From: an uncultured virus (IMG/VR IMGVR_UViG_3300044699_000169)
Taxonomy: Duplodnaviria > Heunggongvirae > Uroviricota > Caudoviricetes
IMG/VR virus record: IMGVR_UViG_3300044699_000169
DNA length: 20,000 bases
Direction: 5' to 3' (one strand)
Part shown: positions 4,905 to 19,842 of the stretch, in pieces
Layout: each line of letters opens with the position of its first letter
Position numbering within the stretch: the stretch's first letter is position 1
Notes under the pieces: model-generated
Databases searched by the model: none
Seen by the model: only the letters and a program-made list of their open reading frames with translations
Told to the model about the DNA's origin: nothing
Translations under genes and position numbers: made by a program

Positions 4905-5254
4905 TGGTGGAGGCGGCGGGAGTCGCACCCGCGTCCTGGAGAGATTCACGAAGGCGTCTACGCGCGTAGGCGGCGATTTGTTCTCGGTCTCGGGACGATC
5001 ACCGCCGATCTTCCGTCGACCATATTCCGGATTGTTTCTTGGAAACCCTTTCCCGGACTCTTCGGGCTTCCCAGCCGATTTTTAACGTCGCATCCCGCCG
5101 ATCGGCGTAAGCTGGCGCGACGTCGCGGTCAGGCCGCGAGGGACAGCTGGCGCTTGCCAGTTAGGGTTTTGGTCTCGTTTTTACGCAGCCTCGAGACCGA
5201 CTGCGGCGCGCGGCTTGTCCGATCCGCACTCCAGTCGAAAACTAGTTCGCCCCC
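4905..5254 (-). ncRNA. ssrA: tmRNA, tag (A)GKRQLSLAA
   Basis: 5' GGGGGCG pairs with 3' CGCCTCC-ACCA (G3:U70); T-arm; pk1 (GCAGTC/GGCTGC, GGTCTCG/CGAGACC); TAACT then GGC AAG CGC CAG CTG TCC CTC GCG GCC TGA; 350 nt. Confidence 0.95.
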
Positions 5255-5742: not shown

Positions 5743-6354
5743 TCAGGGTTCGAGCTCGACCTCCCAGTATGCACGGCCGAGGAACTGCTCCCAGCTCTCG
5801 CGCCGGGCCTTGGGATGGACCTGGGCGAGCGTCTTCCAGCTTGGCTTCTTCGGCGTCTTGCGAGGAGTCATCCCGGCCTGCTCGAGCGTCTTGTCGGCCT
5901 TGCGCTTGTTGCACTCGACGCACGCGAGCAGACAGTTCTCCCAGGTCGACGTCCCGCCGCGGCTCCGAGGAATCACATGGTCGATCGTGAGCTCCTCCGG
6001 ACCCGGCTGCTTCCCGCAGTACTGGCAGGTGTATCGGTCGCGCTTGAAGATGTTCTTCCGCGAGAAGACCACCGACCGCTCGCCACGTCCTTCGTACTCC
6101 GTGAGGACGACCACCTCGGGCGGGACGATCGCCAGATGCTGGGAGCGGATCAGGCCGTCGCCGACGACCTTCATCGCCTTGGAGACTTCTCCCCAGGAAA
6201 TCAGGTCATGCCGGTCGAACGTGGCCGGGTCGATGACGAAAGCCGATCCCTTGGCGACCAGGCCGATCGCGTCCTTGACGGACGTCGTCTGGATGGGATC
6301 CCAGCGCCGGTTCAGCACCAGCACCGTGCGGTCGAGCGCCTTCAAGGCCTCCAC
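5743..6354 (-). CDS. HNH endonuclease (McrA-like, 203 aa)
   Basis: VLVLN...RD.YTCQYCG...TIDHVIPRSRGG...WEN...C..CN motif; AAGGAGG SD before GTG 6354. Confidence 0.92.
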   Translation of the reverse strand: MEALKALDRTVLVLNRRWDPIQTTSVKDAIGLVAKGSAFVIDPATFDRHDLISWGEVSKAMKVVGDGLIRSQHLAIVPPEVVVLTEYEGRGERSVVFSRKNIFKRDRYTCQYCGKQPGPEELTIDHVIPRSRGGTSTWENCLLACVECNKRKADKTLEQAGMTPRKTPKKPSWKTLAQVHPKARRESWEQFLGRAYWEVELEP

Positions 6355-6410
6355 GGGCCACCTCCTTGCAGACCTGAGAAAATCGGGCTGGAACGATTCT
6401 ATCTCGATTC

Positions 6411-6485
6411 TGGTACCCCGGCCAGGAGTCGCGCCTGGACTTGCGGCTTCGGAGACCGCCGTGCGATCTGTTACACCACCGGGGC
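6411..6485 (-). tRNA. tRNA-Arg(CCG)
   Basis: Cloverleaf, loop CT-CCG-AA, CCA end. Confidence 0.9.
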
Positions 6486-6746
6486 CTGCTCGAGGTATTC
6501 GACGATCACGTCTCCGTGGCATGACATCGGATGGCAGTGGCATCCGAGCTTTTTCCCACGAAGCGCTTCCACATTGGCGCGGAAGGCGTGATCGTTCTTG
6601 ATCTTGAAGTTGAAATCGGCCCGGTAGAGCCGAATCACCTCTTGGCGATCACCATCCGGGCCAAGCATGTACGGATTCCCGAACGTGGATCCGCGTCCGA
6701 TGTAGACGTCGCAGGGGCTGTACCGAATATTGACGACTTGAGTCAC
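6471..6746 (-). CDS. DUF4326 family protein
   Basis: DVYIGRGS.FGNPY...LRGKKLGCHCHP..CHGDV motif. Confidence 0.85.
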   Translation of the reverse strand: MTQVVNIRYSPCDVYIGRGSTFGNPYMLGPDGDRQEVIRLYRADFNFKIKNDHAFRANVEALRGKKLGCHCHPMSCHGDVIVEYLEQAPVV

Positions 6747-6765
6747 CGTACCCAGTATACAATCT

Positions 6766-6841
6766 TGGAACCCCCACCAGGAGTCGCACCTGGACCTCGC
6801 ACGTTCGAAGCGTGCGATGCGATCTGCTACACCATGGGGGC
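6766..6841 (-). tRNA. tRNA-Arg(TCG)
   Basis: Loop CT-TCG-AA, CCA. Confidence 0.9.
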
Positions 6842-6844
6842 GTG

Positions 6845-6919
6845 TGGTCTCCCAGGAGGGAATCGAACCCTCACCTCCACCTTCGCAGAGTGGCGGGCAA
6901 TCCGTTACCCCACCGGGAG
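6845..6919 (-). tRNA. tRNA-Arg(GCG)
   Basis: Loop CT-GCG-AA, CCA. Confidence 0.88.
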
Positions 6920-6927
6920 ATGAATCT

Positions 6928-7001
6928 TGGAGCCCCCGCCCGGAGTCGCACCGGGCCTTGCGATGTAGGAGATCGCCGGGCGTCTACTACCCCACGGGGG
7001 C
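6928..7001 (-). tRNA. tRNA-Arg(CCT)
   Basis: Loop CT-CCT-AC, CCA. Confidence 0.88.
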
Positions 7002-7002
7002 T

Positions 7003-7079
7003 TGGTCAGGGACCCCGGACTCGCACCGGGCCTATGCCTGCTTCCAAGGCAGGTAGGGCGCTATCTCCCCATGTCCCTG
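7003..7079 (-). tRNA. tRNA-Pro(TGG)
   Basis: Loop CT-TGG-AA, C1:G72, CCA. Confidence 0.88.
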
Positions 7080-7085
7080 AAATAT

Positions 7086-7161
7086 TGGTGGGCCGTGCGA
7101 GTGTCGATCTCGCGTCAGGCGTTTATGAGACGCTCGCTCTTTGCCGTTGAGCTAACGGCCC
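7086..7161 (-). tRNA. tRNA(CAT), probably Ile2 (lysidine)
   Basis: Loop CT-CAT-AA; C4:G69 and C5:G68 TilS-type determinants. Confidence 0.8.
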
Positions 7162-7171
7162 TCGAGAATAT

Positions 7172-7251
7172 TGGTCCGGGCGGCAGGATTTGAACCTGCG
7201 TTACTCCTGTATCCGAAACAGGCGGGTTAAGCCAGGCTACCCCACGCCCGG
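7172..7251 (-). tRNA. tRNA-Pro(CGG)
   Basis: Loop TT-CGG-AT, CCA. Confidence 0.9.
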
Positions 7252-7259
7252 ATGAAGTT

Positions 7260-7337
7260 TGGTACACGGGGCGGGATTCGAACCCGCACTACCGACGTTC
7301 TCAGCGTCGTGACTCCTGCCAGTTGGTCTACCCGTGC
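7260..7337 (-). tRNA. tRNA-Leu(GAG), short variable loop
   Basis: Loop CT-GAG-AA, CCA. Confidence 0.9.
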
Positions 7338-7426
7338 AAGTGTTTTTCGAGTAACTTTTTTTGCCCTTCTGGCTCACTTTTGAACAACATACCTTCCCGG
7401 AGAGAGGGGCCCAGTTCCCTATCTCT

Positions 7427-7471
7427 GAGGCCGCAGGGATCGCCAGACCTCTGCGGCCTCGTTTTTTTTTT
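7427..7471 (+). terminator. Plus-strand intrinsic terminator (antisense to the array)
   Basis: GAGGCCGCAG...CTGCGGCCTC stem followed by ~10 T. Confidence 0.65.
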
Positions 7472-7544
7472 GGTGCCCCGCGAGGGAGTTGCACCCCCAT
7501 CACCTGTATGTGAGACAGGCATTCTGCTGTTGAAATAGCGGGGC
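7471..7544 (-). tRNA. tRNA-Val(CAC)
   Basis: Loop CT-CAC-AT, CCA. Confidence 0.9.
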
Positions 7545-7545
7545 T

Positions 7546-7628
7546 TGGTGCGGTCGAGAGGATTCGGACCTCCACCCTTTCGGACTGGCTTCTGAGACCA
7601 GCGCGTCTACCAGTTCCGCCACGACCGC
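7546..7628 (-). tRNA. tRNA-Leu(CAG)
   Basis: Loop CT-CAG-AA, variable arm with GAAA loop. Confidence 0.92.
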
Positions 7629-7636
7629 AAATCTTT

Positions 7637-7712
7637 TGGTGGGCCTGGAGGGATTTGCACCCCCAAAATCTCGCTCCTAAGGCGAGCGCGTATGCTGTTC
7701 CGCCACAGGCCC
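7637..7712 (-). tRNA. tRNA-Leu(TAG), short variable loop
   Basis: Loop CT-TAG-GA, CCA. Confidence 0.9.
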
Positions 7713-7716
7713 GGGA

Positions 7717-7793
7717 TGGTGCCGCCGGCGGGACTCGCACCCGCAAGATCCCGGTTTTGAATCGGGCGCGTCTGCTAGTTGCGCCACGGCGGC
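7717..7793 (-). tRNA. tRNA-Leu(CAA), short variable loop
   Basis: Loop TT-CAA-AA, CCA. Confidence 0.88.
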
Positions 7794-7800
7794 AAATTAT

Positions 7801-8172
7801 TCAGGCGGAAGAAGCTCTCCAAGCCCTGTTGTATGCAACGCTGACTTCCCGGCATGGTGTACAACGACAGCCTCTACGATATCCGGTTCTCGTGCCGTGC
7901 CGAATTGGCCTCCAGCGTTCTTTGGCAGTCTTCTTTCGGTGGCACCGATCGCAAAGTACTTGGCACTTTGTAAGCTCCGCGTTTCGCCTGGCTTCGGACC
8001 AAGACCAGACCCGATGGGTTACTTTTCTGGAAGGATCTTTATGATCAACCTTCAGATCCCTCCAGGATCCACAGTGCCTACATGGACCATTCTTCTTGAT
8101 CCACGTTGATTTTCGGCGAGCGATCCATTCACGCTGGTATGACCGTTGCTGCCGGACACTTCCATAAGGCAT
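7801..8172 (-). CDS. Small HNH endonuclease with C-terminal HGT...GCRC..C Zn module
   Basis: CRHCG...VDHKDP...KCQVLCDRCH motif; SD and TACAAT upstream. Confidence 0.85.
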   Translation of the reverse strand: MPYGSVRQQRSYQREWIARRKSTWIKKNGPCRHCGSWRDLKVDHKDPSRKVTHRVWSWSEARRNAELTKCQVLCDRCHRKKTAKERWRPIRHGTRTGYRRGCRCTPCREVSVAYNRAWRASSA

Positions 8173-8232
8173 GAAACCCCCTCAACCCCACGATGCTGGG
8201 ATTGTACAGGAGGATCCGAAAGAACTCAATTT

Positions 8233-8320
8233 TGGTGCGCTCGGAGGGACTTGCACCCTCAAAAGCCCGGGTAAGAGCCGGGGGGCTGTCGATTTCCGCG
8301 GGGTCGGACGTGTTAAGCGC
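8233..8320 (-). tRNA. tRNA-Lys(CTT), 5' half disrupted
   Basis: Intact anticodon arm (CT-CTT-AC), T-arm and ACCA; D-arm region replaced by duplicated sequence. Confidence 0.6.
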
Positions 8321-8454
8321 ATCCTGCGGTGTTCAGACAAACCTCATTGGAGTCGATCTTCCGCGGGGCTTCCGGACGTGTTAAGCGCATCCTGCAGATA
8401 TGTTTTCCTGCAGGATCGCCCGGAGTCCCTCGAGGGATCGACTTCGAAATTTTC

Positions 8455-8529
8455 TGGGTGGCCTCCGGAGGATTTGCAACCCCATCCCCCGGGTAAAAGC
8501 CGGGTCATCTGCTGTTGATCTTCGGAGGC
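8455..8529 (-). tRNA. tRNA-Lys(TTT)
   Basis: Loop CT-TTT-AC; small indels near the 3' end. Confidence 0.8.
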
Positions 8530-8546
8530 GGATCGGGGAGATGTTT

Positions 8547-9315
8547 TTAAGCGGGAGATTTTCCGTCCGGGCAGCAGTAGACATCGCTCGGAGGGAGAGT
8601 TCCCGTGAGACGAATGCCGATAGAAGGGTCGCTGCCCCCTTGAGCGGTCCACCAAAGTTCACAACCGCAAACACAAAAGCTGGGCCGAATGGCGCTGGCA
8701 CAATGACGCCGCCAACAACGAGCGGGATCATGACCTGTCGATGTATAGAGTTGGAATCCCAAGCAGGGAAACGTTCAGCCCACCGTATGGCCCGCACCGT
8801 TTCCCTTTGGCGTCCAGGTGCCGTTGTAAACCGTTGTCCCGCCGATCTGAACGAACGCAGTGCCGTCGCCGCGCAATGGATTCCGGCGATTCCGTTTCCC
8901 GTCGAATCAATAGGTCCCATGCCGTACTGCATGTTCGGCGATACGATCAGCGGCCCTGGAACTTCCTTGAACGCACCTGTACTGAAATCCCAACGCCGGG
9001 GAACTCCGAGAGGCGGCTTGAAGATTACTGAGGCACCAGAATCCGGATCCATCAAGACGTTCTGGCCCAGTGAAGACTACGCTTCCGACTACTGTCGCCC
9101 ATCCGCAGTTTCCCGCCTCGTCACAGCCCTTAAAAACATTCGCTGAAGAGATTTGCCTCTCGGCAGGAAATCGCAGGAGCTGAACCGCGAGCGGATGAGC
9201 CTGACGGCCATAGCCCGCTCGCGGGACCTCCCAGAGGAGTGACCAGACGCCTTGGGACGCATCGTCCAGATATGGCACGAACGAAATTTACGGGGCAGTA
9301 CTTTCTTCCGGCCAT
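8547..9315 (-). CDS. Frameshifted ~255-aa protein: Cys-containing N-terminus plus beta-rich domain
   Basis: Hand-joined frames read MAGRKYCP...LFSECF/KGCDEAGNCGW.../LRGDGTAFVQIGGTTVYNGTWTP.../LNVSLLGIPTLYID/...DVYCCPDGKSPA*; ~6 single-base indels; TAGAGT 6 nt before ATG. Confidence 0.55.
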
Positions 9316-9356
9316 GAGACTACTCTACCCCTGCAGAAGAGAAGTTTCAAAGCATT

Positions 9357-9432
9357 TGGGTAGCCCGCGTCGGAGTCGCACCCGACATCCTCTGATCGAA
9401 AGGCAGAGATCCTACTGTTAGACGAGCGGGGC
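9357..9432 (-). tRNA. tRNA-Glu(TTC)
   Basis: Glu-type D-arm, TTC anticodon; homopolymer indels. Confidence 0.75.
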
Positions 9433-9440
9433 CATGATCG

Positions 9441-9640
9441 GTTCCACAAGGGGGTGGCCTGGTTCGCCATCTGACGATGGTTCGTCACCCTTGCTCCGGG
9501 CAGCGTGGACTATGTACACTGCCGTCCCGGGGGGCCGCTTATTCTGCCTCGACGACCTACCTCGCGATCTGCGCCCTTTCGGCGCGGCCGATAGATCGTT
9601 GGAATTCGATTCCCGCGCGGCAGGCCACCCTCTTGTGGGA
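9441..9640. ncRNA. Candidate ~200-nt structured RNA
   Basis: 20-bp closing stem TTCCACAAGGGGGTGGCCTG/CAGGCCACCCTCTTGTGGGA enclosing several hairpins; no convincing ORF. Confidence 0.55.
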
Positions 9641-9718
9641 AACGAAAGTAAGATCTCCTGGTGTTTTGGGATCTGGGTTGTAGCTAAAATTCTTCCTGAA
9701 GCTCGAAAGGAGAGCGGA

Positions 9719-10217
9719 ATGTTCCAGGAAGACCTTCTTGAGACAGCTCCCGTTTCAGGGATCCCCGTTCACGCGCACCCGCATGGGCCAGAATGGACCG
9801 CTCCCCGATGTGCCTGCCCCGGAACCCGCACCGATGCCGGAACCTGAACCCGCGCCGGAGCCCGCTCCAGAACCGGAGCCTCTCCCCCTTCCCCCTCCTC
9901 CTCCCCCAGCAGACTGCAAGCGCCTCGGAGTTCCCTTCAGAGAGAACGGATCGTGCCTCCAGCTCTTCGAATGCAAGCAGCCGGATGGAACGATCACCTA
10001 CAAGAAGGAGCCCGCAAGCTGCCCTCCTCGGCCTCGTCCTCCGATCTACTACTTTCCGTACATTCCCCCGATCTACTACTCGCCCTACCCTCCAGAATCT
10101 CGGGAAGCGGCTTTCGAATTCGATGCCGGAGAGAAGAAGACCACGATCGAAGAAGCTGCGCCATATGCTCTCGGCGCCGTCGGGATCGCGGCCGCGCTCT
10201 ACGCGATCTTCAGCTAA
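9719..10217 (+). CDS. Pro/Glu-rich protein with C-terminal membrane anchor and ...RMGQ leader
   Basis: ORF 9738..10217; AAGGAG SD at ATG 9719 implies a 1-nt insertion error (MSRKTFLRQLP...); TAAAAT -10 at ~9685. Confidence 0.75.
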
Positions 10218-10220
10218 ATC

Positions 10221-10294
10221 TGGCAGGCCGCCAGGGATTCGCACCCTGTCCGCCGGTTTGAAGGACCAGCATCCTACTCATAGACGAGCGGCCC
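10221..10294 (-). tRNA. tRNA-Glu(TTC)
   Basis: Loop CC-TTC-AA (C33), GCCA end. Confidence 0.82.
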
Positions 10295-10299
10295 AAGAT

Positions 10300-10373
10300 T
10301 GGTAGCCTCAGCGAGATTCGCACTCGCTCCTGCACCTTGAGAGGGTGCCGACCTACTCATAGTCGATGAGGCC
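10300..10373 (-). tRNA. tRNA-Glu(CTC)
   Basis: Loop CT-CTC-AA. Confidence 0.9.
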
Positions 10374-10374
10374 G

Positions 10375-10450
10375 TGGTACCCCCCGGCAGGAATTGCACC
10401 CGCACTTCCGAGGTAGAAGCTCGGCGCGCTATCTGTTACGCGACAGGGGC
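10375..10450 (-). tRNA. tRNA-Arg(TCT)
   Basis: Loop CT-TCT-AC. Confidence 0.88.
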
Positions 10451-10455
10451 AAGAT

Positions 10456-10541
10456 TGGCACCACGGGTAGGATTCGAACCTACATACTCTTTCGAGCGCC
10501 TCATTAACAGTGAGGTGGGCTACCGATTACCCGACCGTGGT
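10456..10541 (-). tRNA. tRNA-Asn(GTT) with long variable arm
   Basis: Loop CT-GTT-AA; V-arm GCTC-GAAA-GAGT. Confidence 0.88.
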
Positions 10542-10542
10542 A

Positions 10543-10618
10543 TGGAGCCGGTGGCGAGCTCTGCCCTCGCCGCCTCCGAGTTACGAACTCGGCGCTCTGC
10601 TGAATGAGCTACACCGGC
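10543..10618 (-). tRNA. tRNA-Thr(CGT)
   Basis: Loop TT-CGT-AA. Confidence 0.9.
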
Positions 10619-10628
10619 TTGAAGTTTT

Positions 10629-10703
10629 TGGAGCACCGTCCGGGGATCGAGCCCGGTCATGACCGCTTTGCAGGCGGCCGCGTTCCCATTTCGCCAACGG
10701 TGC
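10629..10703 (-). tRNA. tRNA-Cys(GCA)
   Basis: Loop CT-GCA-AA, U73. Confidence 0.9.
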
Positions 10704-10706
10704 AAG

Positions 10707-10782
10707 TGGTAGCGGGAGGGGGAGTTGAACCCGCCGTCTCGGAGTTATGAGCCCCGCGTGATGACCGTATCACTACCCCGCA
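10707..10782 (-). tRNA. tRNA-fMet(CAT)
   Basis: 1:72 mismatch, G-rich anticodon stem, loop CT-CAT-AA. Confidence 0.85.
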
Positions 10783-10859
10783 TCGGAGATCGCCGACCGG
10801 AAGCCGTCGTGCTGAGCACGCTATCCTGGCTCGATCGAACGACTGGTGACCTTCAATAT

Positions 10860-10950
10860 TGGCGGAAGGTGCGAGAGTCGAACTCGCCGCCCGTCTTAGG
10901 GGCCCGTGTTTAGCAAACACGTCTCGCTAACCGATATCGAGCTACCTTCC
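10860..10950 (-). tRNA. tRNA-Ser(GCT)
   Basis: Loop TT-GCT-AA, long V-arm, G73. Confidence 0.9.
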
Positions 10951-10951
10951 A

Positions 10952-11039
10952 TGGCGGAGGCGACAGGAGTCGAACCTGCACGGCCGGTTAAAGCCGGCTC
11001 GCTTCCAACGAGCTGGGCCTGCCAGTGCCCAACGCCTCC
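10952..11039 (-). tRNA. tRNA-Ser(GGA)
   Basis: Loop TT-GGA-AG, long V-arm. Confidence 0.9.
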
Positions 11040-11113
11040 ATGAGGCCGGACTTGATGGATCCAGCTCGAGGGCGAAATCACAGAGAAGCTCGCCCACCAT
11101 CTCTGATCAGTTT

Positions 11114-11201
11114 TGGCGGAGACGGCGTGACTTGCACACGCGCTCCCTTTCGGGGTCCACCGCTTTCAAGGCGGGGCGGCACGCTCACTGCCTTCGTCTC
11201 C
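11114..11201 (-). tRNA. tRNA-Ser(TGA)
   Basis: Loop CT-TGA-AA, long V-arm. Confidence 0.88.
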
Positions 11202-11204
11202 GTG

Positions 11205-11283
11205 TGGTAGAATTTTCACAGCCTTCGAAAGGCGTTTCCCTCTCCCGAGCCCAGGCACTTCGCCTGGGCTCGAATTTTTTTTT
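11205..11283 (+). ncRNA. Candidate antisense-oriented sRNA unit A (extended -10, ~60-nt RNA, terminator)
   Basis: TGgTAGAAT at 11205-11213; hairpin, CT-rich linker, CGAGCCCAGGC/GCCTGGGCTCG stem and T-run. Confidence 0.55.
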
Positions 11284-11376
11284 GGCGGAGAGCTGAGGTC
11301 TTGATCCCCATGCCCGGTTGTGCCGGGCACCATCCCGTTTCGAGCGGGCGGCGAGTTCTCACTCGCTTAACTCTCC
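11283..11376 (-). tRNA. tRNA-Ser(CGA)
   Basis: Loop CT-CGA-AA, long V-arm. Confidence 0.88.
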
Positions 11377-11377
11377 A

Positions 11378-11452
11378 TGGTACCAGCCGACGGATCTGCC
11401 CCGTCACTTTCGGCTTATGAAACCGACGTCATTCTCGTTAGACCAGGCTGGC
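11378..11452 (-). tRNA. tRNA-Met(CAT), probably elongator
   Basis: Loop TT-CAT-AA. Confidence 0.82.
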
Positions 11453-11458
11453 GGATCT

Positions 11459-11534
11459 TGGTAGAATTTCTCCTATACATACCGCCTTTGGGCCAGGGGA
11501 ATAGAGATCTCCATTCTCCTGGCCTTTGTTTTTT
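11459..11534 (+). ncRNA. Candidate antisense-oriented sRNA unit B
   Basis: TGgTAGAAT at 11459-11467; ~17-nt single strand, then GGCCAGGGGAAT/ATTCTCCTGGCC stem and T-run. Confidence 0.55.
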
Positions 11535-11535
11535 C

Positions 11536-11610
11536 TGGAGCTGGCGACCGGTCTTGCACCGGCATCTGTCCGCTTACAAAGCGGGGGCTCTGCTGTTGAG
11601 CTACGCCAGC
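11536..11610 (-). tRNA. tRNA-Thr(TGT)
   Basis: Loop TT-TGT-AA. Confidence 0.9.
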
Positions 11611-11613
11611 GTG

Positions 11614-11671
11614 TGATACAATCCGATCACTAGACCCGCCCAGGGCCCGGGGTTGTTCCCCGGGCTTTTTT
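11614..11671 (+). ncRNA. Candidate antisense-oriented sRNA unit C
   Basis: TGaTACAAT at 11614-11622; short leader, GCCCGGGG/CCCCGGGC stem and T6. Confidence 0.5.
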
Positions 11672-11676
11672 ATTTC

Positions 11677-11752
11677 TGGAGCCGGCGGCGGGTGCTGCCC
11701 CCGCACCTCGGCATTACCAATGCCGCATTCAGAGCTGCTAAACTACGCCGGC
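11677..11752 (-). tRNA. tRNA-Thr(GGT)
   Basis: Loop TT-GGT-AA. Confidence 0.88.
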
Positions 11753-11864
11753 GTGAACAACGGGAGCGGGGCCCGGGTCAGCCCCTCGCGAAGGCGCACA
11801 CCCTCGATCCTTGCCAGCCCGAGCCCCGCCACCAGAGTTAGGGGTCTGAGTGGTCCGGTCGATT

Positions 11865-12063
11865 TCAGTGTACACCGCCGATGAATCTGCTGAAGGCGTA
11901 AAGGACGAGCGCTGCGAGGACCGAGGATCCAGAGCCAGCATCCGAGCGGCATCCGCGACACCATCCCGCTTCCGTCGTAGGGCCTATCGGGAGGTTTCCT
12001 GGAGGTCTTCTCCTGGCGCTGCATTTCCGCAGCACGTCTCAGGATCTCTTCCTTGCGACTCAT
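11865..12063 (-). CDS. Small membrane protein (~65 aa; one apparent indel)
   Basis: MSRKEEIL...CWLWIL continues after a 1-nt shift as VLAALVLYAFSRFIGGVH*; TAAGAT 6 nt before ATG. Confidence 0.6.
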
Positions 12064-12081
12064 GGAAGCATCTTACAAGAT

Positions 12082-12155
12082 TGGTGGGCACGGCTGGAAT
12101 TGCACCAGCATCTCATCCATGTCACGGATGCATTCTGCTTTTGAAATACGCGCCC
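12082..12155 (-). tRNA. tRNA-Val(GAC)
   Basis: Loop GT-GAC-AT. Confidence 0.88.
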
Positions 12156-12158
12156 GAA

Positions 12159-12460
12159 CGAAGCGTTCGCTGACCTCGGTTTAGCCCCCACACTCGCCTG
12201 CTGGACGCTTTAGCCGGTACTTCAGAGCCCGCGCTCCCTTTATGGCGTCTCTCGCTTTCGCGGCAGGGCTGACACAAATCTTGGAAGCTCTTCACTTCCC
12301 CGGCCCGGCCATGATCATCTCCAAAAGGCATGTGGTCGAATAGCGGACCCGAAGGCCCTGCCACTCCTTCGTCCTCCGAGGCGGCTTGAGACATGGAGAC
12401 TTACGTGGGTCGTTTCGCGCCGTGATCGCGTCGACTTTCACCGACAGACCGAACGCTTCG
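12159..12460 (-). ncRNA. raiA motif RNA
   Basis: 11-bp P1 (CGAAGCGTTCG/CGAACGCTTCG); blocks GGTCTGTCGGTGAAAGTCGA, GAAACGACCCACGTAAG, CCTGCCGC-GAAA-GCGAGAG and TCCAGCAGGCGAGTGTGGGG...GGTCA match the raiA-motif consensus as I recall it (not searched). Confidence 0.85.
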
Positions 12461-12466
12461 AAGATC

Positions 12467-12543
12467 TGGTCGGGCTCCGCGGACTTGCACCGCGCTTACT
12501 CCTGCACCCCAAGCAGGCGGGTCGCTATCTACCCCTGAGCCCG
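12467..12543 (-). tRNA. tRNA-Pro(GGG)
   Basis: Loop TT-GGG-GT. Confidence 0.88.
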
Positions 12544-12753
12544 TTATGGATCAAGACTTCGGTGCATGGCGTCCTTCATGCGCTGACGATATTCGTCCCA
12601 ACGCTTGGTCTTCTTGGGGCACACGGCGCAGGCGATCGCTGCCTTGAGCGTGGAGCTCCAGACCCAGTGATGGATCCCGAAGACGCAAAGCAACCTGGAG
12701 AGCCAATTGAATTTCGAGCTCTCAACTCTCCAGGACGGATCGACATGAGGCAT
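12544..12753 (-). CDS. Small phage protein (69 aa; RLLC.FGIH.W...C..C, DUF1660-like)
   Basis: ORF track; TACAAT 7 nt before ATG 12753. Confidence 0.65.
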   Translation of the reverse strand: MPHVDPSWRVESSKFNWLSRLLCVFGIHHWVWSSTLKAAIACAVCPKKTKRWDEYRQRMKDAMHRSLDP

Positions 12754-12776
12754 CGTCCCCATTGTACATCGAATCT

Positions 12777-12850
12777 TGGAGGGACCAGTGGGAGTCGAAC
12801 CCACCCTGGCCGGGTCACAGCCGACCGTGCCGCCGCAACACTTTGGCCCC
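12777..12850 (-). tRNA. tRNA-His(GTG)
   Basis: Loop CT-GTG-AC; no encoded G-1, U73. Confidence 0.85.
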
Positions 12851-12858
12851 ATAAGATT

Positions 12859-12933
12859 TGGTCGGCGTGGATGGTTCCGCCCCATCTTCTTCCGGTTATC
12901 AACCGGATGCTCTAGCTACTGAGCTACACGCCG
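12859..12933 (-). tRNA. tRNA-Ile(GAT)
   Basis: Loop TT-GAT-AA. Confidence 0.9.
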
Positions 12934-12943
12934 ATGAAAATCT

Positions 12944-13017
12944 TGGACGGGGTGACCGGTAATGATCCGGCTTCTCCTCCTTGGCAAAGAGGCGCACTAC
13001 CTTTGTGCTACACCCCG
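12944..13017 (-). tRNA. tRNA-Gly(GCC)
   Basis: Loop TT-GCC-AA, U73. Confidence 0.88.
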
Positions 13018-13027
13018 AAAAATTTTC

Positions 13028-13106
13028 TGGTTGCCCGGGAAGGAATCGAACCTTCGTCCACCCGCTTCAAAGGCGGAGCTCCGATACCAACACAGAGTGC
13101 CGGGCA
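13028..13106 (-). tRNA. tRNA-Gln(TTG)
   Basis: Loop CT-TTG-AA, U1:A72. Confidence 0.88.
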
Positions 13107-13107
13107 A

Positions 13108-13200
13108 TGGTGGGAGCTGGAGGAGTTGAACCTCTCGTCCTTAACCGCCGCTCTTGTTTTGGGACAACGGTTTTACAGACCGCCGAGCGGACCAGCGCCC
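13108..13200 (-). tRNA. tRNA-Tyr(GTA), lacking a local D-arm
   Basis: Loop CT-GTA-AA, T-arm, ACCA; only ~10 nt between acceptor and anticodon stems. Confidence 0.75.
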
Positions 13201-13209
13201 AGGGAAATT

Positions 13210-13285
13210 TGGTGGATCCGGCGAGCTTTGCTCTCGCTACCTCCTGCTTGCAAAGCAGGCGCTCTCCTGATTGAGCTACGGACCC
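13210..13285 (-). tRNA. tRNA-Ala(TGC)
   Basis: Loop TT-TGC-AA, G3:U70. Confidence 0.92.
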
Positions 13286-13292
13286 GAAAGAT

Positions 13293-13367
13293 TGGTGGAC
13301 CCAGGCGGTTCCGCCCCGCCGTCTGCCGATTGCGAACCGGCCGCTCTCCTGATTGAGCTATGGGCCC
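13293..13367 (-). tRNA. tRNA-Ala(CGC)
   Basis: Loop TT-CGC-AA, G3:U70. Confidence 0.9.
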
Positions 13368-13443
13368 GTAGCAGAGGCAGGATTTGAACCTGCAAGCCCC
13401 AGGTTATGAGCCTGGTGAGGTCACCGGATGCCTCTCCTCTGCA
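13368..13443 (-). tRNA. tRNA-fMet-like(CAT), no full CCA encoded
   Basis: Loop CT-CAT-AA, U1:U72 mismatch. Confidence 0.8.
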
Positions 13444-13448
13444 AGATT

Positions 13449-13522
13449 TGGTGGATCCAGGGAGAATCGCACTCCCGCCTCGAGCGTGCCACGCTCGCGT
13501 CCTCCTGCTAGACGATGGACCC
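13449..13522 (-). tRNA. tRNA-Ala(GGC)
   Basis: Loop GT-GGC-AC, G3:U70. Confidence 0.9.
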
Positions 13523-13597
13523 TGGTGCCGGCCTCCGGTGCTGCCCCGGACGCCTCCCGCTTTTCAGACGGGCGCTCTACTGCTGAGCTAGACCGGC
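13523..13597 (-). tRNA. tRNA-Phe(GAA)
   Basis: Loop CT-GAA-AA. Confidence 0.9.
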
Positions 13598-13768
13598 GAG
13601 TAATTCTTCTGCCCGAAGCACGATCCCGAGCGCGTAGGCCCAACGTCTGAACCCTGGAATCTCGAGCTCGTATCTTTCGATGATCGTTTCCCCGGCCCTC
13701 CAGCCGTCTCTCCGGATCGTCCACCCATACTCGGTGAGCGCCTGGATCCGCTTCTCCCGATCGTCCAT
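13577..13768 (-). CDS. Small hypothetical protein (63 aa)
   Basis: GGAGGTG SD; stop lies inside tRNA-Phe. Confidence 0.65.
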   Translation of the reverse strand: MDDREKRIQALTEYGWTIRRDGWRAGETIIERYELEIPGFRRWAYALGIVLRAEELLAGLAQQ

Positions 13769-13857
13769 GCAGCACCTCCACAGGTATCGCGTCTGGATCG
13801 AGAGGGGTGTGACAAAGAATGAAAAATAGGCTAGAATCCCCCGGCAAGGGGGAACTT

Positions 13858-14179
13858 ATGAGCGAACTGCTGCAGGTCACGGACAAGAACTTCGACGAGG
13901 CGCTCAAGGCGCCGCTGGCGATCATTGAGTTCTGGGCGCCCTGGTGCCCGGGCTGCAAGGCCGCCAAGCCCACGATCGCCAAGATCGCCGGCGAGCTCCA
14001 AGGTCAGGTGCTCGTCGTCGGAGCCGACATCGACGAAGCGCCAAAAGCCACCGAGAGGCACGAGGTCACCTCGATCCCGACGCTCGTCTTCTTCAGGGAC
14101 GGCAAGGAGTTCTACCGCATCGACGGGACGACTCCTACCGGCGCCTCATGCCCGACATCAAGAGCCGATTCGGATCTGA
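13858..14179 (+). CDS. trxA: Thioredoxin (WCPGC); 3' end uncertain because of indels
   Basis: VTDKNFDE...EFWAPWCPGC...SIPTLVFFRDG motifs; TAGAAT -10 and GGGGG SD. Confidence 0.88.
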
Positions 14180-14183
14180 AGAT

Positions 14184-14259
14184 TGGTTCCCACGCCAGGA
14201 TTCGAACCTGGAATCTCCACGGTCAGAACGTGGCGTCCTACCGGTTAGACGACGTGGGA
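14184..14259 (-). tRNA. tRNA-Gln(CTG)
   Basis: Loop TT-CTG-AC. Confidence 0.92.
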
Positions 14260-14344
14260 GTAAAGGGCGACACGCACCAGCGAGCGCGCGTTCGACTTGT
14301 CGGTGCAGGCTCATCGCGCGGAGCCCGTTACATCGCCCGAAGCT

Positions 14345-14420
14345 TGGCGCCCCTGATGGGATTCGAACCCACGGTCTCCTCCGTGACAGGGAGGCGGGGA
14401 CTCCACTCCCCTACAGAGGC
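14345..14420 (-). tRNA. tRNA-Asp(GTC)
   Basis: Loop CT-GTC-AC, G73. Confidence 0.92.
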
Positions 14421-14431
14421 GTTTTCAATTT

Positions 14432-14505
14432 TGGCATGCCGGAGAGGAGTCGCACCTCTACCCGCTGACTTGGAAACAGCGATGCTGCTGCTACACCACC
14501 GGCAT
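14432..14505 (-). tRNA. tRNA-Trp(CCA)
   Basis: Loop TT-CCA-AG, G73. Confidence 0.85.
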
Positions 14506-14506
14506 G

Positions 14507-14581
14507 TGGAGCGGGCAGCGGGACTTGCACCCGCGATCTTCTCCTTGGGAAGGAGACGCGTTGCTTCTACGCTACGCCCGC
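14507..14581 (-). tRNA. tRNA-Gly(CCC)
   Basis: Loop TT-CCC-AA, U73. Confidence 0.92.
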
Positions 14582-14584
14582 ATG

Positions 14585-14658
14585 TGGACCGCCTGACCGG
14601 AGTCGCACCGGCATCATCTGGGTGGAAACCAGACGCTCTGCTGTTGAGCTACAGGCGG
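14585..14658 (-). tRNA. tRNA-Gly(TCC)
   Basis: Loop TT-TCC-AC, U73. Confidence 0.9.
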
Positions 14659-14677
14659 ACGAAAGGCGCGTCACCGC

Positions 14678-14706
14678 TTGAAGATTTCATCCCCCTCGCG
14701 TATACT
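14678..14706 (+). promoter_or_regulatory. Sigma70-like promoter, antisense to the array leader
   Basis: TTGAAG-17 nt-TATACT. Confidence 0.65.
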
Positions 14707-14712
14707 CGCTTC

Positions 14713-14967
14713 CCGAGCGTGTGACGGCCTGGCATTGAGGTCGGGGAGGCCCACCCTTCCCGGATGGGCCTCCCCTTCCGATCTTTGTCGTTCCAGCCCG
14801 ATTTTCAAGTGCGGCGCGCGCCAACGCGCCGCGGCTTCCTGGCTCAGGGGCCCGGCCGGAGCCGATGGCGTCCTGAGTCCCTGGTATCCGCCCACCGACC
14901 TTCCAAGGTCGGTGGGTACAACAAAAAAACCCCCGCGTCCTTTCGGGCGCGGGGGTTTCAGTTTTTT
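14713..14967 (+). ncRNA. Candidate ~250-nt multi-hairpin RNA
   Basis: Follows the promoter; four strong hairpins, then the bidirectional terminator. Confidence 0.5.
14923..14958 (-). terminator. Attenuator terminator upstream of the tRNA array (bidirectional)
   Basis: AAACCCCCGCGCCC-GAAA-GGACGCGGGGG-TTTTTTT. Confidence 0.85.
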
Positions 14968-14977
14968 CGAGCTCTTG

Positions 14978-15139
14978 TTACATCACCATCGCCCCCGCGC
15001 CCGTCTGTTCGATGGTTCGATTCCCGGCGGGCTTGCTGCACGTCGCCGGGGAATACGAACCCACGAACAGAGACCAAGCCTGCCGATGGAGGATCTCCAT
15101 CGTTGGCCTTTGGTCTCGGACGCAGGGTAGTGATCTCAC
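14978..15139 (-). CDS. Putative attenuator leader peptide (53 aa, all 20 amino acids)
   Basis: AAGGAG 11 nt before GTG; MRSLPCVRDQRPTMEILHRQAWSLFVGSYSPATCSKPAGNRTIEQTGAGAMVM*; 39 distinct codons; overlaps antiterminator 14992-15002. Confidence 0.75.
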   Translation of the reverse strand: MRSLPCVRDQRPTMEILHRQAWSLFVGSYSPATCSKPAGNRTIEQTGAGAMVM

Positions 15140-15180
15140 GGAAGGTCCGTCTCCTTGTTCGGTGGTCCTGTTACATGAAC

Positions 15181-15209
15181 AACGTAGCCGCCGAAAGGTT
15201 CGGTGTCAA
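15181..15209 (-). promoter_or_regulatory. Sigma70-like promoter of the tRNA operon
   Basis: TTGACA-17 nt-TACGTT with an upstream T-tract. Confidence 0.8.
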
Positions 15210-15228
15210 GCGGAAAAAAAATCGAATT

Positions 15229-16035
15229 CTAGAAGGCGCCAGGACGACGCACGAGATGGACCTGGCCGAGCATTGCCCGCCCCATCGTGAAAGGGGTCGC
15301 CGTCGTCATCGGCGTCGTCAAAGCCGACGATACGAGACCCGACGAAACACACATGCCGCCGCGGACGAGCCTCGCGGTGCCTGCCGGCAACCGCTAGTTC
15401 TCCAGTCAACGCTGGCGACCGGTGGCGGAGTTTCGATGAGCTCGGCGGCTCAGGCGAGGGACTGGCTCGCCCGTCGGATACGGAATCTCCTCGGGCCACT
15501 CGTTCAATTCGTGCGGCGCAGTGCTGGGGCCTCCAGTCGACGGAAGGAACATCCAGGGGGCTGAGTTGCAATTGCTCTTCGAGCGAAGTCGATGGGATTT
15601 GGAATTTCCTGGAGGCCAGTTCGTAGCCAGACTCCGTTCCGAAATCCACGGGCGCAGTGTTCCATTTCTCTTCAAGAGCGGCGATCTTATCGAGACACCC
15701 GTTGTAGGCGTCCACCGCATCGGTGTAAGTCTGATATTCCGTATCTCCAGATTCTTCTCTGTCGATAGTAATGGCTCTTGTGCGTCCTCCATGTTCGCTG
15801 TAAGGATCTCGCATTCCTGTTCTTTTCCTTGAATTTTCGAGGCGTGGAGCGCCCTGCGCTCCATCTCTCTGGCGACTCCTCGGAAAATGGAGCGTGAAGG
15901 AGGTATCTCTTCGGGACTGGAGCTGGCTCTACCGGTAATGCGATGGTACGCGCCCCACGGATCCGTGAATTCGACTTGACCCAAAGACCGAGATCCGGGA
16001 ACTCTGAGAGGAACCCGACCCAAGAACGGGCGCAT
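15229..16035 (-). CDS. Hypothetical protein with MRPFLGRVPL...SLGQ leader, multiply frameshifted
   Basis: GGAGG SD; coding signal passes between ORFs 15406..16035 and 15206..15814. Confidence 0.5.
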
Positions 16036-18465: not shown

Positions 18466-19842
18466 TCATGGGAGCACAATGATGTCCGAGAGTTCCTTCT
18501 CCCAGGCAATCTGCTCAAGACGAAGCGGGTGCTCGTGGAACTCGCTCGGATCGTGGTCCCACATAAAGATCTCCGGCTTGGGATCGGATGGGCCGGAAAG
18601 CTCCGGAACGATCGGCTCCTCGGCCTCATCCTCTTCAGCCTCAGCCGCCTTGCTCCGCATGAACGACCCAGTCCCCGCGCACGGCTTTCTCCCAGTTCGC
18701 CTGGAACCTGGGACGCTCTTTGTTGAACATGGCCCTCGGGCGCCGCGACGAACATCTCCTCGAGCGTGGGATAGACGTCTGGCTTCCGCCGGCGCACGTA
18801 GACGCGGGGGATCTCTCCCTCGTGGCTGATCTTTCCGTAGGTCGAAAGCTTGGCCTCGATCGTCTGGCGATCCCCTTCCTCGGCAATGATGACGCTCCGA
18901 TCGGCATGGGCCTTCTGGGTGTAGATCCGGCGGACCCGGTAGACCGCCCAGGGCCAGCCGTTCAGCATCTGATCGAACATCGAAAGCGCGTCGTAATCCT
19001 CGACCTCCCTGGCGATGCTCATCAGGCTCTTGGTCGAGTAGAGCGTCATGCGCGGATTGAGCGCCATCGAGACGAACTCGATGAAGAGGCTGAAGGCTGC
19101 GCGATCCGGAAACTGCTGAAAGCGGACGAGCACGGGCTCCTTCCCGGCCGCGAAGGGGCAATAGGCGCAGGCGCTCTTGGGCCAGTTTTCCCCCGGTGAC
19201 GCTGCGGATGTAGTCCTCGCAAACTTGACGGCTCCATCCCCAGTCGTGCATGAGCGGATAGATCGACGTTTTCTGGCCGACCGGCCATTTGATGGCCGAG
19301 TAGCTCTGGTCCCGGACAACGCGCCGGGCCTCCTCGGCGTTGAAGCCGATCGCCTGAACGAATGGCTGCCCGTGGACCTCACGCTCGATCCAGGCGTCCA
19401 AAGGCCAACCCTTCGACTTGATCGAGCAGAGCCTTCTCGATCCGGCGACCTGGGGAACGGTGCCGGCGGCGAGGAGCTCGTCGGAGAGCTTGTAGGCTCC
19501 CTCAAGCATGAGGGTATTCGGAGATCTTGAATCGTCGAGGACCGTCATAGGTTCGGTCTTCGACTTCCGGGCGACCTGAACGAATCGGATTCCGTGTCTC
19601 CGAAGCCTGGGAAAGATGTGCGTCTCGATCAGACGCTTCAGGTCCGGAAACTCGTCCCCGGTCATGGCCGTCACGACCGTCAGATCCTTGAGGTCGAACG
19701 ATCCGTTCCCCTGGTAGGTGAAGCTTGGTGGATCCATTCCCTCGGCGACGCTGTAGACGCGAAACGACCTCGAGGCTGGGTTTTCAAGCCAATGAAGCAG
19801 AATGGCCGTGCTGTCCACGCCCATTCCGTAAGAGAGAATCAT
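18466..19842 (-). CDS. PP-loop PAPS reductase/QueC-like protein with acidic tail, ~2 frameshifts
   Basis: SYGMGVDS PP-loop, CSIKSKG, IGFNAEE..R, YPL..WGWSR..C, KSACAYCPF motifs. Confidence 0.75.
   Translation of the reverse strand: MILSYGMGVDSTAILLHWLENPASRSFRVYSVAEGMDPPSFTYQGNGSFDLKDLTVVTAMTGDEFPDLKRLIETHIFPRLRRHGIRFVQVARKSKTEPMTVLDDSRSPNTLMLEGAYKLSDELLAAGTVPQVAGSRRLCSIKSKGWPLDAWIEREVHGQPFVQAIGFNAEEARRVVRDQSYSAIKWPVGQKTSIYPLMHDWGWSRQVCEDYIRSVTGGKLAQERLRLLPLRGREGARARPLSAVSGSRSLQPLHRVRLDGAQSAHDALLDQEPDEHRQGGRGLRRAFDVRSDAERLALGGLPGPPDLHPEGPCRSERHHCRGRGSPDDRGQAFDLRKDQPRGRDPPRLRAPAEARRLSHARGDVRRGARGPCSTKSVPGSRRTGRKPCAGTGSFMRSKAAEAEEDEAEEPIVPELSGPSDPKPEIFMWDHDPSEFHEHPLRLEQIAWEKELSDIIVLP

Follow-up and report, generated by a model that had tools for sequence, protein, structure and literature searches.

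How a phage times and doses the expression of a large array of transfer RNA (tRNA) genes is, to our knowledge, essentially unknown, and a short leader ahead of such an array in the DNA of an uncultured member of the Caudoviricetes (IMG/VR record IMGVR_UViG_3300044699_000169) raises the question of whether the decoding ribosome itself could be the regulator. The window analysed here, 20,000 nucleotides (nt) in length, is a phage-type stretch of 60% G+C from soil and rhizosphere metagenomes, and its minus strand carries a promoter-like site, a small open reading frame (ORF) and an intrinsic terminator, followed by the tRNA genes. We consider it somewhat better than an even bet, with a probability of roughly 0.55, that this leader is a ribosome-dependent transcription attenuator that gates read-through into the array. 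A first-pass annotation had placed the promoter-like site, an AAGGAG motif, a 53-codon frame and the terminator on the minus strand, and all were recovered at the same coordinates. In the order in which they would be transcribed, the elements are:

15181..15209, minus strand: promoter-like site TTGACA-17-TACGTT with a T run before it, a candidate from sequence only
15151..15156, minus strand: Shine-Dalgarno-like AAGGAG, 11 nt upstream of the GTG
14978..15139, minus strand: leader ORF (an upstream ORF, or uORF, as read from the sequence) with a GTG start, 53 sense codons and TAA
15106..15136, minus strand: codons 2-12 at the front of the ORF, many of them A-ending, among which five are rare (AGA, TCA, CTA, CGA, CAA)
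14990..15127, minus strand: three-way RNA fold inside the ORF with two long arms, -85.1 kcal/mol for 141 nt, z=-7.8, closed by codons 5-8 pairing with codons 45-50
14992..15002, minus strand: G-rich strand GGGCGCGGGGG at codons 47-50, the antiterminator, fully complementary over 11 nt to the terminator 5' arm (14955-14945)
14978..14980, minus strand: stop codon, between the antiterminator strand (11 nt upstream) and the terminator stem (22 nt downstream)
14923..14958, minus strand: intrinsic terminator of -26.2 kcal/mol, its stem interrupted by a C-A mismatch and its tail a run of 7 T; also reads as a terminator on the plus strand
14889..14917, minus strand: second, perfect hairpin directly after the terminator
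14659..14888, minus strand: structured spacer before the first tRNA, z about -6, in which no TANNNT -10 motif was seen by eye on that strand
6411..14658, minus strand: tRNA array of 44 tRNA genes and one marginal, which also contains two HNH genes, a raiA-type RNA and, on the opposite strand, a thioredoxin gene

The element on which this reading turns is the strand at the end of the ORF. The first-pass annotation had described a perfect pairing of 11 base pairs between GGGCGCGGGGG and the terminator 5' arm, as against a C-A mismatch within the stem of the terminator itself, and both are present. When the upstream 213 nt were shuffled, a complement of 11 nt was attained in 1 of 5000 shuffles, and the upstream complement was at most 5 nt in each of five controls, namely the same hairpin read on the plus strand and four terminator-like sites elsewhere in the window. 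The antiterminator is not a product of chance, and it is specific to the minus strand. The two competing structures are also closely matched, with the antiterminator hairpin at -27.2 kcal/mol against -26.2 kcal/mol for the terminator, and in a transcript ending just before the terminator 3' arm the antiterminated fold (-102.0) and its alternative (-99.2) are nearly equal. That the terminator is a regulated one is well supported.

What would operate the switch is a separate matter, and the three-way fold inside the ORF suggests one answer that dispenses with the ribosome. In such an RNA-only switch, the fold (15127-14990) would be the sensor, whether of a small ligand, a tRNA or a protein; the 3' strand of the fold would double as the antiterminator in a manner resembling an OFF riboswitch, and the ORF would be incidental. 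The layout is like that of a riboswitch expression platform, with the 3' strand of the closing helix competing for the terminator arm, and the fold is extremely stable; its junction, however, is almost without unpaired nucleotides that could form a ligand pocket, and the closing helix does not stand out from chance, since the duplex of codons 5-8 with codons 45-50 (-24.2) lies within the range of the shuffles (P=0.24). No Rfam family matched either: neither a T-box nor any riboswitch was found at the gathering threshold, the T-box not even at E up to 10, and the best leader-type scores, 18-25 bits against thresholds of 50-55, covered the terminator alone (Leu_leader, RF00512, 20.3 bits against 50; Thr_leader, RF00506, 18.4 bits on the minus strand and 25.0 bits on the plus strand against 55). 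Weighed together with the evidence for a reading frame given below, these points make sensing by RNA alone quite improbable in our view. The same comparison with shuffles applies to a trp-type anti-antiterminator (a 1:2 pairing), a model on which the first-pass annotation drew: it is unneeded, and it is unsupported, the pairing of codons 5-8 with the antiterminator strand being no better than in shuffles. A tRNA-like or Y-RNA-like element within the ORF, considered on account of GGTTCG/CGAACC motifs, was discarded as nothing was found there by default ARAGORN or Rfam.

A ribosome-dependent attenuator would require that the ORF be translated, and the composition of the frame suggests that it probably is. 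The codon counts given by the first-pass annotation were reproduced, namely 39 distinct codons, all 20 amino acids and no repeat within codons 2-32. Among 412 stop-free 53-codon stretches of the window, the mean number of distinct codons is 32.0 (sd 3.1) and at least 39 are reached in 0.7%, while all 20 kinds of amino acid occur in 1.0% and a non-repeating run of at least 31 codons in none (0/412). In 5000 stop-free shuffles of the ORF, the corresponding probabilities are P=0.03 for at least 39 distinct codons, P=0.005-0.017 for 20 kinds of amino acid and P about 0.0002 for a run of at least 31. Read in its two alternative frames, this stretch has 35 distinct codons with a run of 16 and 37 with a run of 17; the codon variety is specific to the ORF frame.

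Further signals come from codon usage, which was tabulated for the phage as relative synonymous codon usage (RSCU) from 11 ORFs and 2400 codons. Codons 13-53 favour the codons that the phage prefers, their mean RSCU of 1.34 exceeding that of stop-free shuffles (1.11, sd 0.08; P=0.003), and G+C at third codon positions (GC3) is 0.736 for the ORF against 0.618 in the shuffles (P=0.024), with values of 0.70-0.87 in 13 of the 15 candidate ORFs of the window that were tabulated. A-ending codons account for 6 of the 11 codons at positions 2-12 (P=0.012) and for 2 of the 41 in the rest of the ORF, with 2/11 at the front of each of the other two frames, and this A-ending front may represent the low-structure start common to translated genes. 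The first-pass annotation had listed six rare codons here, and AGA, TCA, CTA and CGA are indeed rare, as is CAA, but AGG (RSCU 1.02) and CCA (0.84) are not. GGAG-type sites lie ~4-9 nt ahead of the start in 7 of 15 candidate gene starts (for example orf256, with AAGGAG at 8 nt; by eye). Neither tandem repeats nor a run of regulatory codons were found in the ORF, in which no codon occurs more than three times. It is the codon bias, GC3, A-ending front and frame-specific codon variety, together with the AAGGAG ahead of the GTG, the conservation of the frame and the position of the stop in relatives, that lead us to regard the ORF as probably translated.

Relatives of the leader were found among DNA contigs and among recorded proteins. 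Metagenome contigs with a PAPS-reductase-like gene gave seven loci, of which L003 and L004 alone extend to the leader, where they are near-identical to the window, and L005-L009 end short of any tRNA array. L003 and L004 share 94-95% protein identity in a neighbouring gene, and the promoter-like site is identical in the two. The leader of L003 is identical to that of the window through the ORF, the length of the T run being the sole difference up to the end of the contig; that of L004 differs by two substitutions and one T-run length, with one codon change in the ORF. Conservation of the leader was considered as a sign of selection and set aside as uninformative, because divergence among the relatives is mosaic and other stretches without differences occur. 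More diverged is the X8 contig, found by DNA rather than by protein, in which the 25 nt around the stop contain 7 substitutions and 5 single-base indels and the stop nevertheless falls at the same codon position (TAA to TGA, by hand), matching the peptide form P0002, which ends in MVE. The antiterminator strand is unchanged in L003, L004 and X8, the terminator stem with its C-A mismatch is unchanged in L004 and X8, and the second hairpin of X8 differs from that of the window in the loop only (14904-14906).

In public protein collections, the leader peptide occurs in six distinct forms of 40-54 amino acids, with many radical substitutions, length differences of whole codons only (two alignment columns) and the same end position; one form, P0009, is called from a GTG start. 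Frame-specific codon bias, whole-codon indels and a fixed stop would be left unexplained if RNA alone did the switching. On the side of RNA, the 3' strand of arm B of the fold (KPAGNRTIE) is invariant in 6/6 variants, the changes inferred from the peptides touch arm B only in loops, bulges or wobbles, at unpaired or wobble-compatible positions in the most diverged variant, and arm A is looser. In the peptide form P0004, an Ala50Ser change would entail a G-to-U at the 3' end of the antiterminator strand. Retention of the rare codons in P0009 was rejected as a signal because it is trivial, the third positions being unchanged. Longer, read-through forms of the peptide were not found, which is weak evidence. 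Among viral contigs, a 25-nt pattern of the leader had no matches and an 18-nt pattern one chance match (L010), and no relatives were found there through the thioredoxin, the 95-amino-acid ORF upstream of the leader or the leader peptide alignment; among genome contigs, none were found through the leader peptide alignments A2 and A3. The stretch occurs in twenty sequencing runs, and in the contigs of four runs, positions 15096-15257 are uncovered.

From these elements the following mechanism may be proposed. That the promoter is active, that the ORF is translated in a coupled fashion, that polymerases read through into the tRNAs and that the switch works in this direction are all inferred. Transcription would start near 15175 at the promoter-like site and enter the 53-codon leader ORF. 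The strand at codons 47-50 could pair with the terminator 5' arm 40 nt downstream and so prevent termination, and the stop codon of the ORF lies between the two competing strands; a ribosome at the end of the ORF would be expected, on steric grounds, to keep them apart. A ribosome close behind the polymerase would reach the ORF end and sit between or on both strands, so that the terminator would form and transcription would stop at 14923. If instead the ribosome lagged, stalled upstream or had not loaded, the antiterminator would form before the terminator 3' arm emerged, and the polymerase would read through the spacer into the tRNAs. The result would be negative feedback, with more tRNA made while decoding is poor and its output shut down once decoding is good. 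In the scan, no minus-strand terminator-like sites are listed between 14923 and 5726, and the first tRNA of the array (tRNA-Gly, 14658) lies 265 nt beyond the terminator; the array may thus be one long unit fed through the gate. No minus-strand promoter-like site is listed between the terminator and the first tRNA in scans for sigma-70-type sites. The promoter-like site ahead of the ORF is the sole TTGACN-N17-TANNNT match in the 20 kb, a uniqueness that is weak alone, with 0.40 matches expected and at least one match in 70/200 shuffles. Within the spacer, a 74-codon GTG frame (14671-14895, minus strand) without a clear codon signal spans the whole structured region and stops 13 nt before tRNA-Gly.

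The closest known parallel is the uORF attenuator of whiB7/wblC in Actinobacteria, in which efficient translation of the uORF leads to termination and stalling leads to read-through (PMC10274678). The whiB7 uORF of M. smegmatis is reported to encode 19 of the 20 amino acids; depletion tied to 18 of the 20, including that of tRNAs and synthetases, activates the system, the composition of the uORF sets which shortages are sensed, and removal of an amino acid from the uORF abolishes the response to that amino acid (PMC10274678, which cites Lee, Lee & Roe, Mol Microbiol 2021). Several features of a whiB7-type attenuator are present in the phage leader: an ORF with a ribosome-binding site and start after a promoter-like site, an intrinsic terminator before the tRNAs, an antiterminator overlapping the ORF and a stop placed where a terminating ribosome could block the antiterminator. 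The likeness to the mycobacterial and Streptomyces systems extends to the distal position of the promoter (here a promoter-like site), to a uORF several dozen codons long, to a Rho-independent terminator for which an antiterminator competes, and to a peptide sequence that varies widely, between species in the case of whiB7. The host group is probably shared as well, a weak inference to Actinobacteria from the relatives of an HNH gene and from the raiA-type RNA. In contrast, whiB7 is a cellular system whose target is a transcription factor of antibiotic and stress responses, and its uORFs are enriched in alanine, whereas the leader studied here is phage-borne, stands before tRNA genes and has an even-handed ORF with its 39 distinct codons. 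No sequence or Rfam relation between the two was found, and the phage leader would differ further in that its product, tRNA, would directly relieve the signal. The first-pass annotation had known of no described example of such a general sensor, but the whiB7/wblC attenuator is a described general sensor of translational stalling (PMC10274678). The design as such thus has a precedent; what is new is its proposed connection to the tRNA set of a phage.

Leader attenuators are known from amino-acid operons (trpL, hisL, leuL, thrL, pheL and ilvL) and from pheST. They resemble the phage leader, as read here, in having a short ORF with a Shine-Dalgarno sequence after the promoter, competing hairpins between which the position of the ribosome decides, and the supply of charged tRNA as the signal. 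Their ORFs, however, have 14-32 codons with runs of one or a few regulatory codons, unlike the 53 codons without a run seen here; they rely on the 1:2 anti-antiterminator that lacks support in this leader; and their stop codon precedes the antiterminator strand, which it follows here. T-box riboswitches likewise sense the status of tRNA and switch between terminator and antiterminator upstream of translation-related genes, but their binding of uncharged tRNA is direct and involves no ribosome, and they are marked by a specifier loop and the conserved T-box sequence. Full-text literature searches returned no description of leader-ORF attenuation of tRNA genes.

A number of observations weigh against ribosome-dependent attenuation. 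The full transcript at equilibrium always folds to the terminator, wherever the ribosome footprint is placed, so that antitermination must be kinetic, as it is in known attenuators; equilibrium folding with ribosome footprints was accordingly dropped as a test, for the terminator wins every time and nothing is discriminated. The spacing of 11 nt between the Shine-Dalgarno-like motif and the GTG is longer than the ~4-9 nt at candidate gene starts of the window, and five of the six peptide records are called from internal ATG starts whose positions are not conserved. The peptide variants come from a protein search, which finds open frames only and therefore yields a biased sample; the relatives ascertained by DNA are either near-identical (L003, L004) or partial (X8, 3' part only); and several helices of the ORF appear to tolerate breaks, as judged from nucleotide changes inferred from peptides. 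None of the listed sequencing runs is on record as RNA except two guessed ones with small shares, one of which, X19, covered parts of the tRNAs only. A comparable module of promoter, ORF and terminator was found in 0 of 2 other actinophage tRNA arrays (Tonenili, L011, and GMA2, L012), which, being only two and from unrelated phages, are not decisive. The codon statistics, finally, were picked after the ORF had been seen.

The ORF is, moreover, among the most structured stretches (-91.6 kcal/mol for 162 nt, z=-7.9), and structure this strong is seen more typically in non-coding RNAs than in translated leaders. A further reading is that the frame is there by chance. The tRNA precursor would then begin with a non-coding leader that folds strongly and perhaps contains processing sites for RNase E or RNase III, followed by a leaky, unregulated terminator. 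The window of 60% G+C contains 199 ORFs of at least 40 amino acids, a second frame across the same stretch is also stop-free, and the whole 5' region up to the first tRNA is highly structured; the arms of the fold, moreover, are near-perfect over ~20 base pairs, and helices of such length resemble RNase III substrates. The joint occurrence of a Shine-Dalgarno motif with a start, the codon bias (P=0.003), a stop kept between the two strands and a significant antiterminator would nevertheless be hard to obtain by chance, even post hoc, and we judge this reading to be very improbable.

The remaining points against the proposed attenuator concern the plus strand, on which the terminator hairpin also reads, with a better stem in which G-T replaces C-A and with a T-rich tail, and on which a promoter-like site (14678-14706) is directed toward it, as is another at 13809, before the thioredoxin gene. 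The leader could then be a separate small unit, either a small protein gene or a structured small RNA of ~250 nt, which the bidirectional terminator insulates from a convergent plus-strand unit, while the tRNAs are transcribed from an unrecognised, for example phage-specific, promoter. The limitation of the promoter scans to sigma-70-type sites and the presence of other non-coding RNAs in the array region (the raiA-type RNA and a transfer-messenger RNA, tmRNA) fit this view. A plain terminator, however, needs no perfect 11-nt competitor upstream, such as none of the five controls possesses and as exists for the minus strand only; the conserved C-A mismatch weakens the minus-strand terminator just enough to match the antiterminator; and the radical variation of the peptide is unlike that of a small protein selected for its sequence. 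We therefore take insulation of a separate unit to be unlikely, though it is the rival that we rate highest, and return to attenuation by the ribosome.

If the ribosome does set the switch, a further question is what the codons of the ORF are for. With 39 codons, 20 amino acids and a front of rare A-ending codons, the leader would respond when any of many tRNAs runs short, much as the whiB7 uORF responds to many amino acids, and the codon variety is suggestive of an adaptation that tests nearly every tRNA. The ORF samples 35 of the 41 anticodon classes of the array, rather than the 36 of 43 reported in the first-pass annotation, and its TAT codon is one for which no tRNA was detected in the array. 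The annotation had also noted avoidance of TTA and GTA, whose tRNAs are missing: no tRNA-Leu(UAA) or tRNA-Val(UAC), nor a tRNA-Tyr, was detected in the array by ARAGORN and Rfam, but the avoidance itself is unremarkable at 62% G+C. In its stronger form, the proposal is that the leader is a selected pan-tRNA gauge, in which shortage of almost any tRNA, or its cleavage by host anticodon nucleases, stalls the ribosome and thereby switches on the near-complete tRNA set of the phage. Cleavage of tRNA is reported to be a common defence of hosts, one against which phage tRNAs can act (for example PMC11555353); a link of the leader to anticodon nucleases is speculation. The variety was chosen post hoc, and the changes inferred for the variant P0009 would break the run of 31 codons, so that the claim is unproven and we hold it to be doubtful, if still a tentative candidate. 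What stood of the first-pass model is thus a terminator and antiterminator that a ribosome on the ORF could set, in view of the significance of the 11-nt complement, the matched stabilities, the placement of the stop, the codon signals and the kept frame; the adaptation to sample tRNAs did not reach that standing.

The array that would be gated is itself a substantial translation island. Default ARAGORN found 35 tRNAs and a tmRNA, a relaxed run 40 tRNAs, and Rfam added four and one marginal match, the anticodons of the four being read from their folds; this gives the 44 tRNA genes and one marginal listed above, where the first-pass annotation had counted 46, with 41 distinct anticodons in place of its 43 classes. 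Other features in or beside the array are:

12161-12458, minus strand: raiA-type structured RNA between tRNA-Val and tRNA-Pro, matching Rfam RF03072 over the whole model at 104.3 bits (threshold 101.3)
4905-5254, minus strand: one-piece tmRNA with the short tag GKRQLSLAA, just past the array (ARAGORN, Rfam)
13858-14724, plus strand: thioredoxin gene (PF00085, E=6.9e-22), opposite in strand within the tRNA array
5743-6543 and 7801-8172, minus strand: two HNH endonuclease genes, in or beside the tRNA array

The raiA-type RNA, a structure of unknown function, may by its position inside a phage translation island hint at a translation-related role. The thioredoxin gene has a promoter-like site of its own, GTGACA-17-TAGAAT, at 13809-13837 (plus strand), and its frame stays open until 14724, antisense across five tRNA genes; in a related contig, single bases are inserted after 14133 and 14171, so that the frame in the window probably contains two 1-nt deletions or errors. 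Elsewhere inside the minus-strand array, plus-strand terminator-like hairpins with T tails are found at 11246-11272 and 11642-11668, and plus-strand promoter-like sites at 11439-11467 as well as at 14678-14706; these could be marks of small antisense transcripts.

With respect to its wider setting, the window carries HNH endonucleases and a few PHROG families, and a blastn search with an 801-nt query found no DNA match to it among phage records. The HNH gene at 7801-8172 is closest to HNH genes of mycobacteriophages of ~155-160 kb, and 132 of the 141 phage records matching it are phages of Mycobacterium, Mycolicibacterium, Streptomyces or Gordonia, which, with the raiA-type RNA, gives a weak hint of an actinobacterial host. 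The PAPS-reductase-like gene (phrog_424; 18466-19842, minus strand) is frameshifted near 19150 in the window and intact in L003 and L004, which points to a 1-nt indel in the window there, either an assembly error or a true mutation. Directly upstream of the leader, positions 15400-16000 are replaced or highly diverged among relatives that are otherwise 95-100% identical, 200-nt bins of L004 showing 86 and 109 differences, and their coding signal is weak, so that the region resembles a variable cassette adjoining the conserved leader; no homologue of the 95-amino-acid ORF upstream of the leader was found.

Should the proposed mechanism hold, leader-ORF attenuation, so far a matter of amino-acid and stress genes, would reach the machinery of decoding as well. 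The phage would then possess a simple feedback by which tRNA is made when decoding falters, and its leader would constitute a compact natural sensor of general translation speed.

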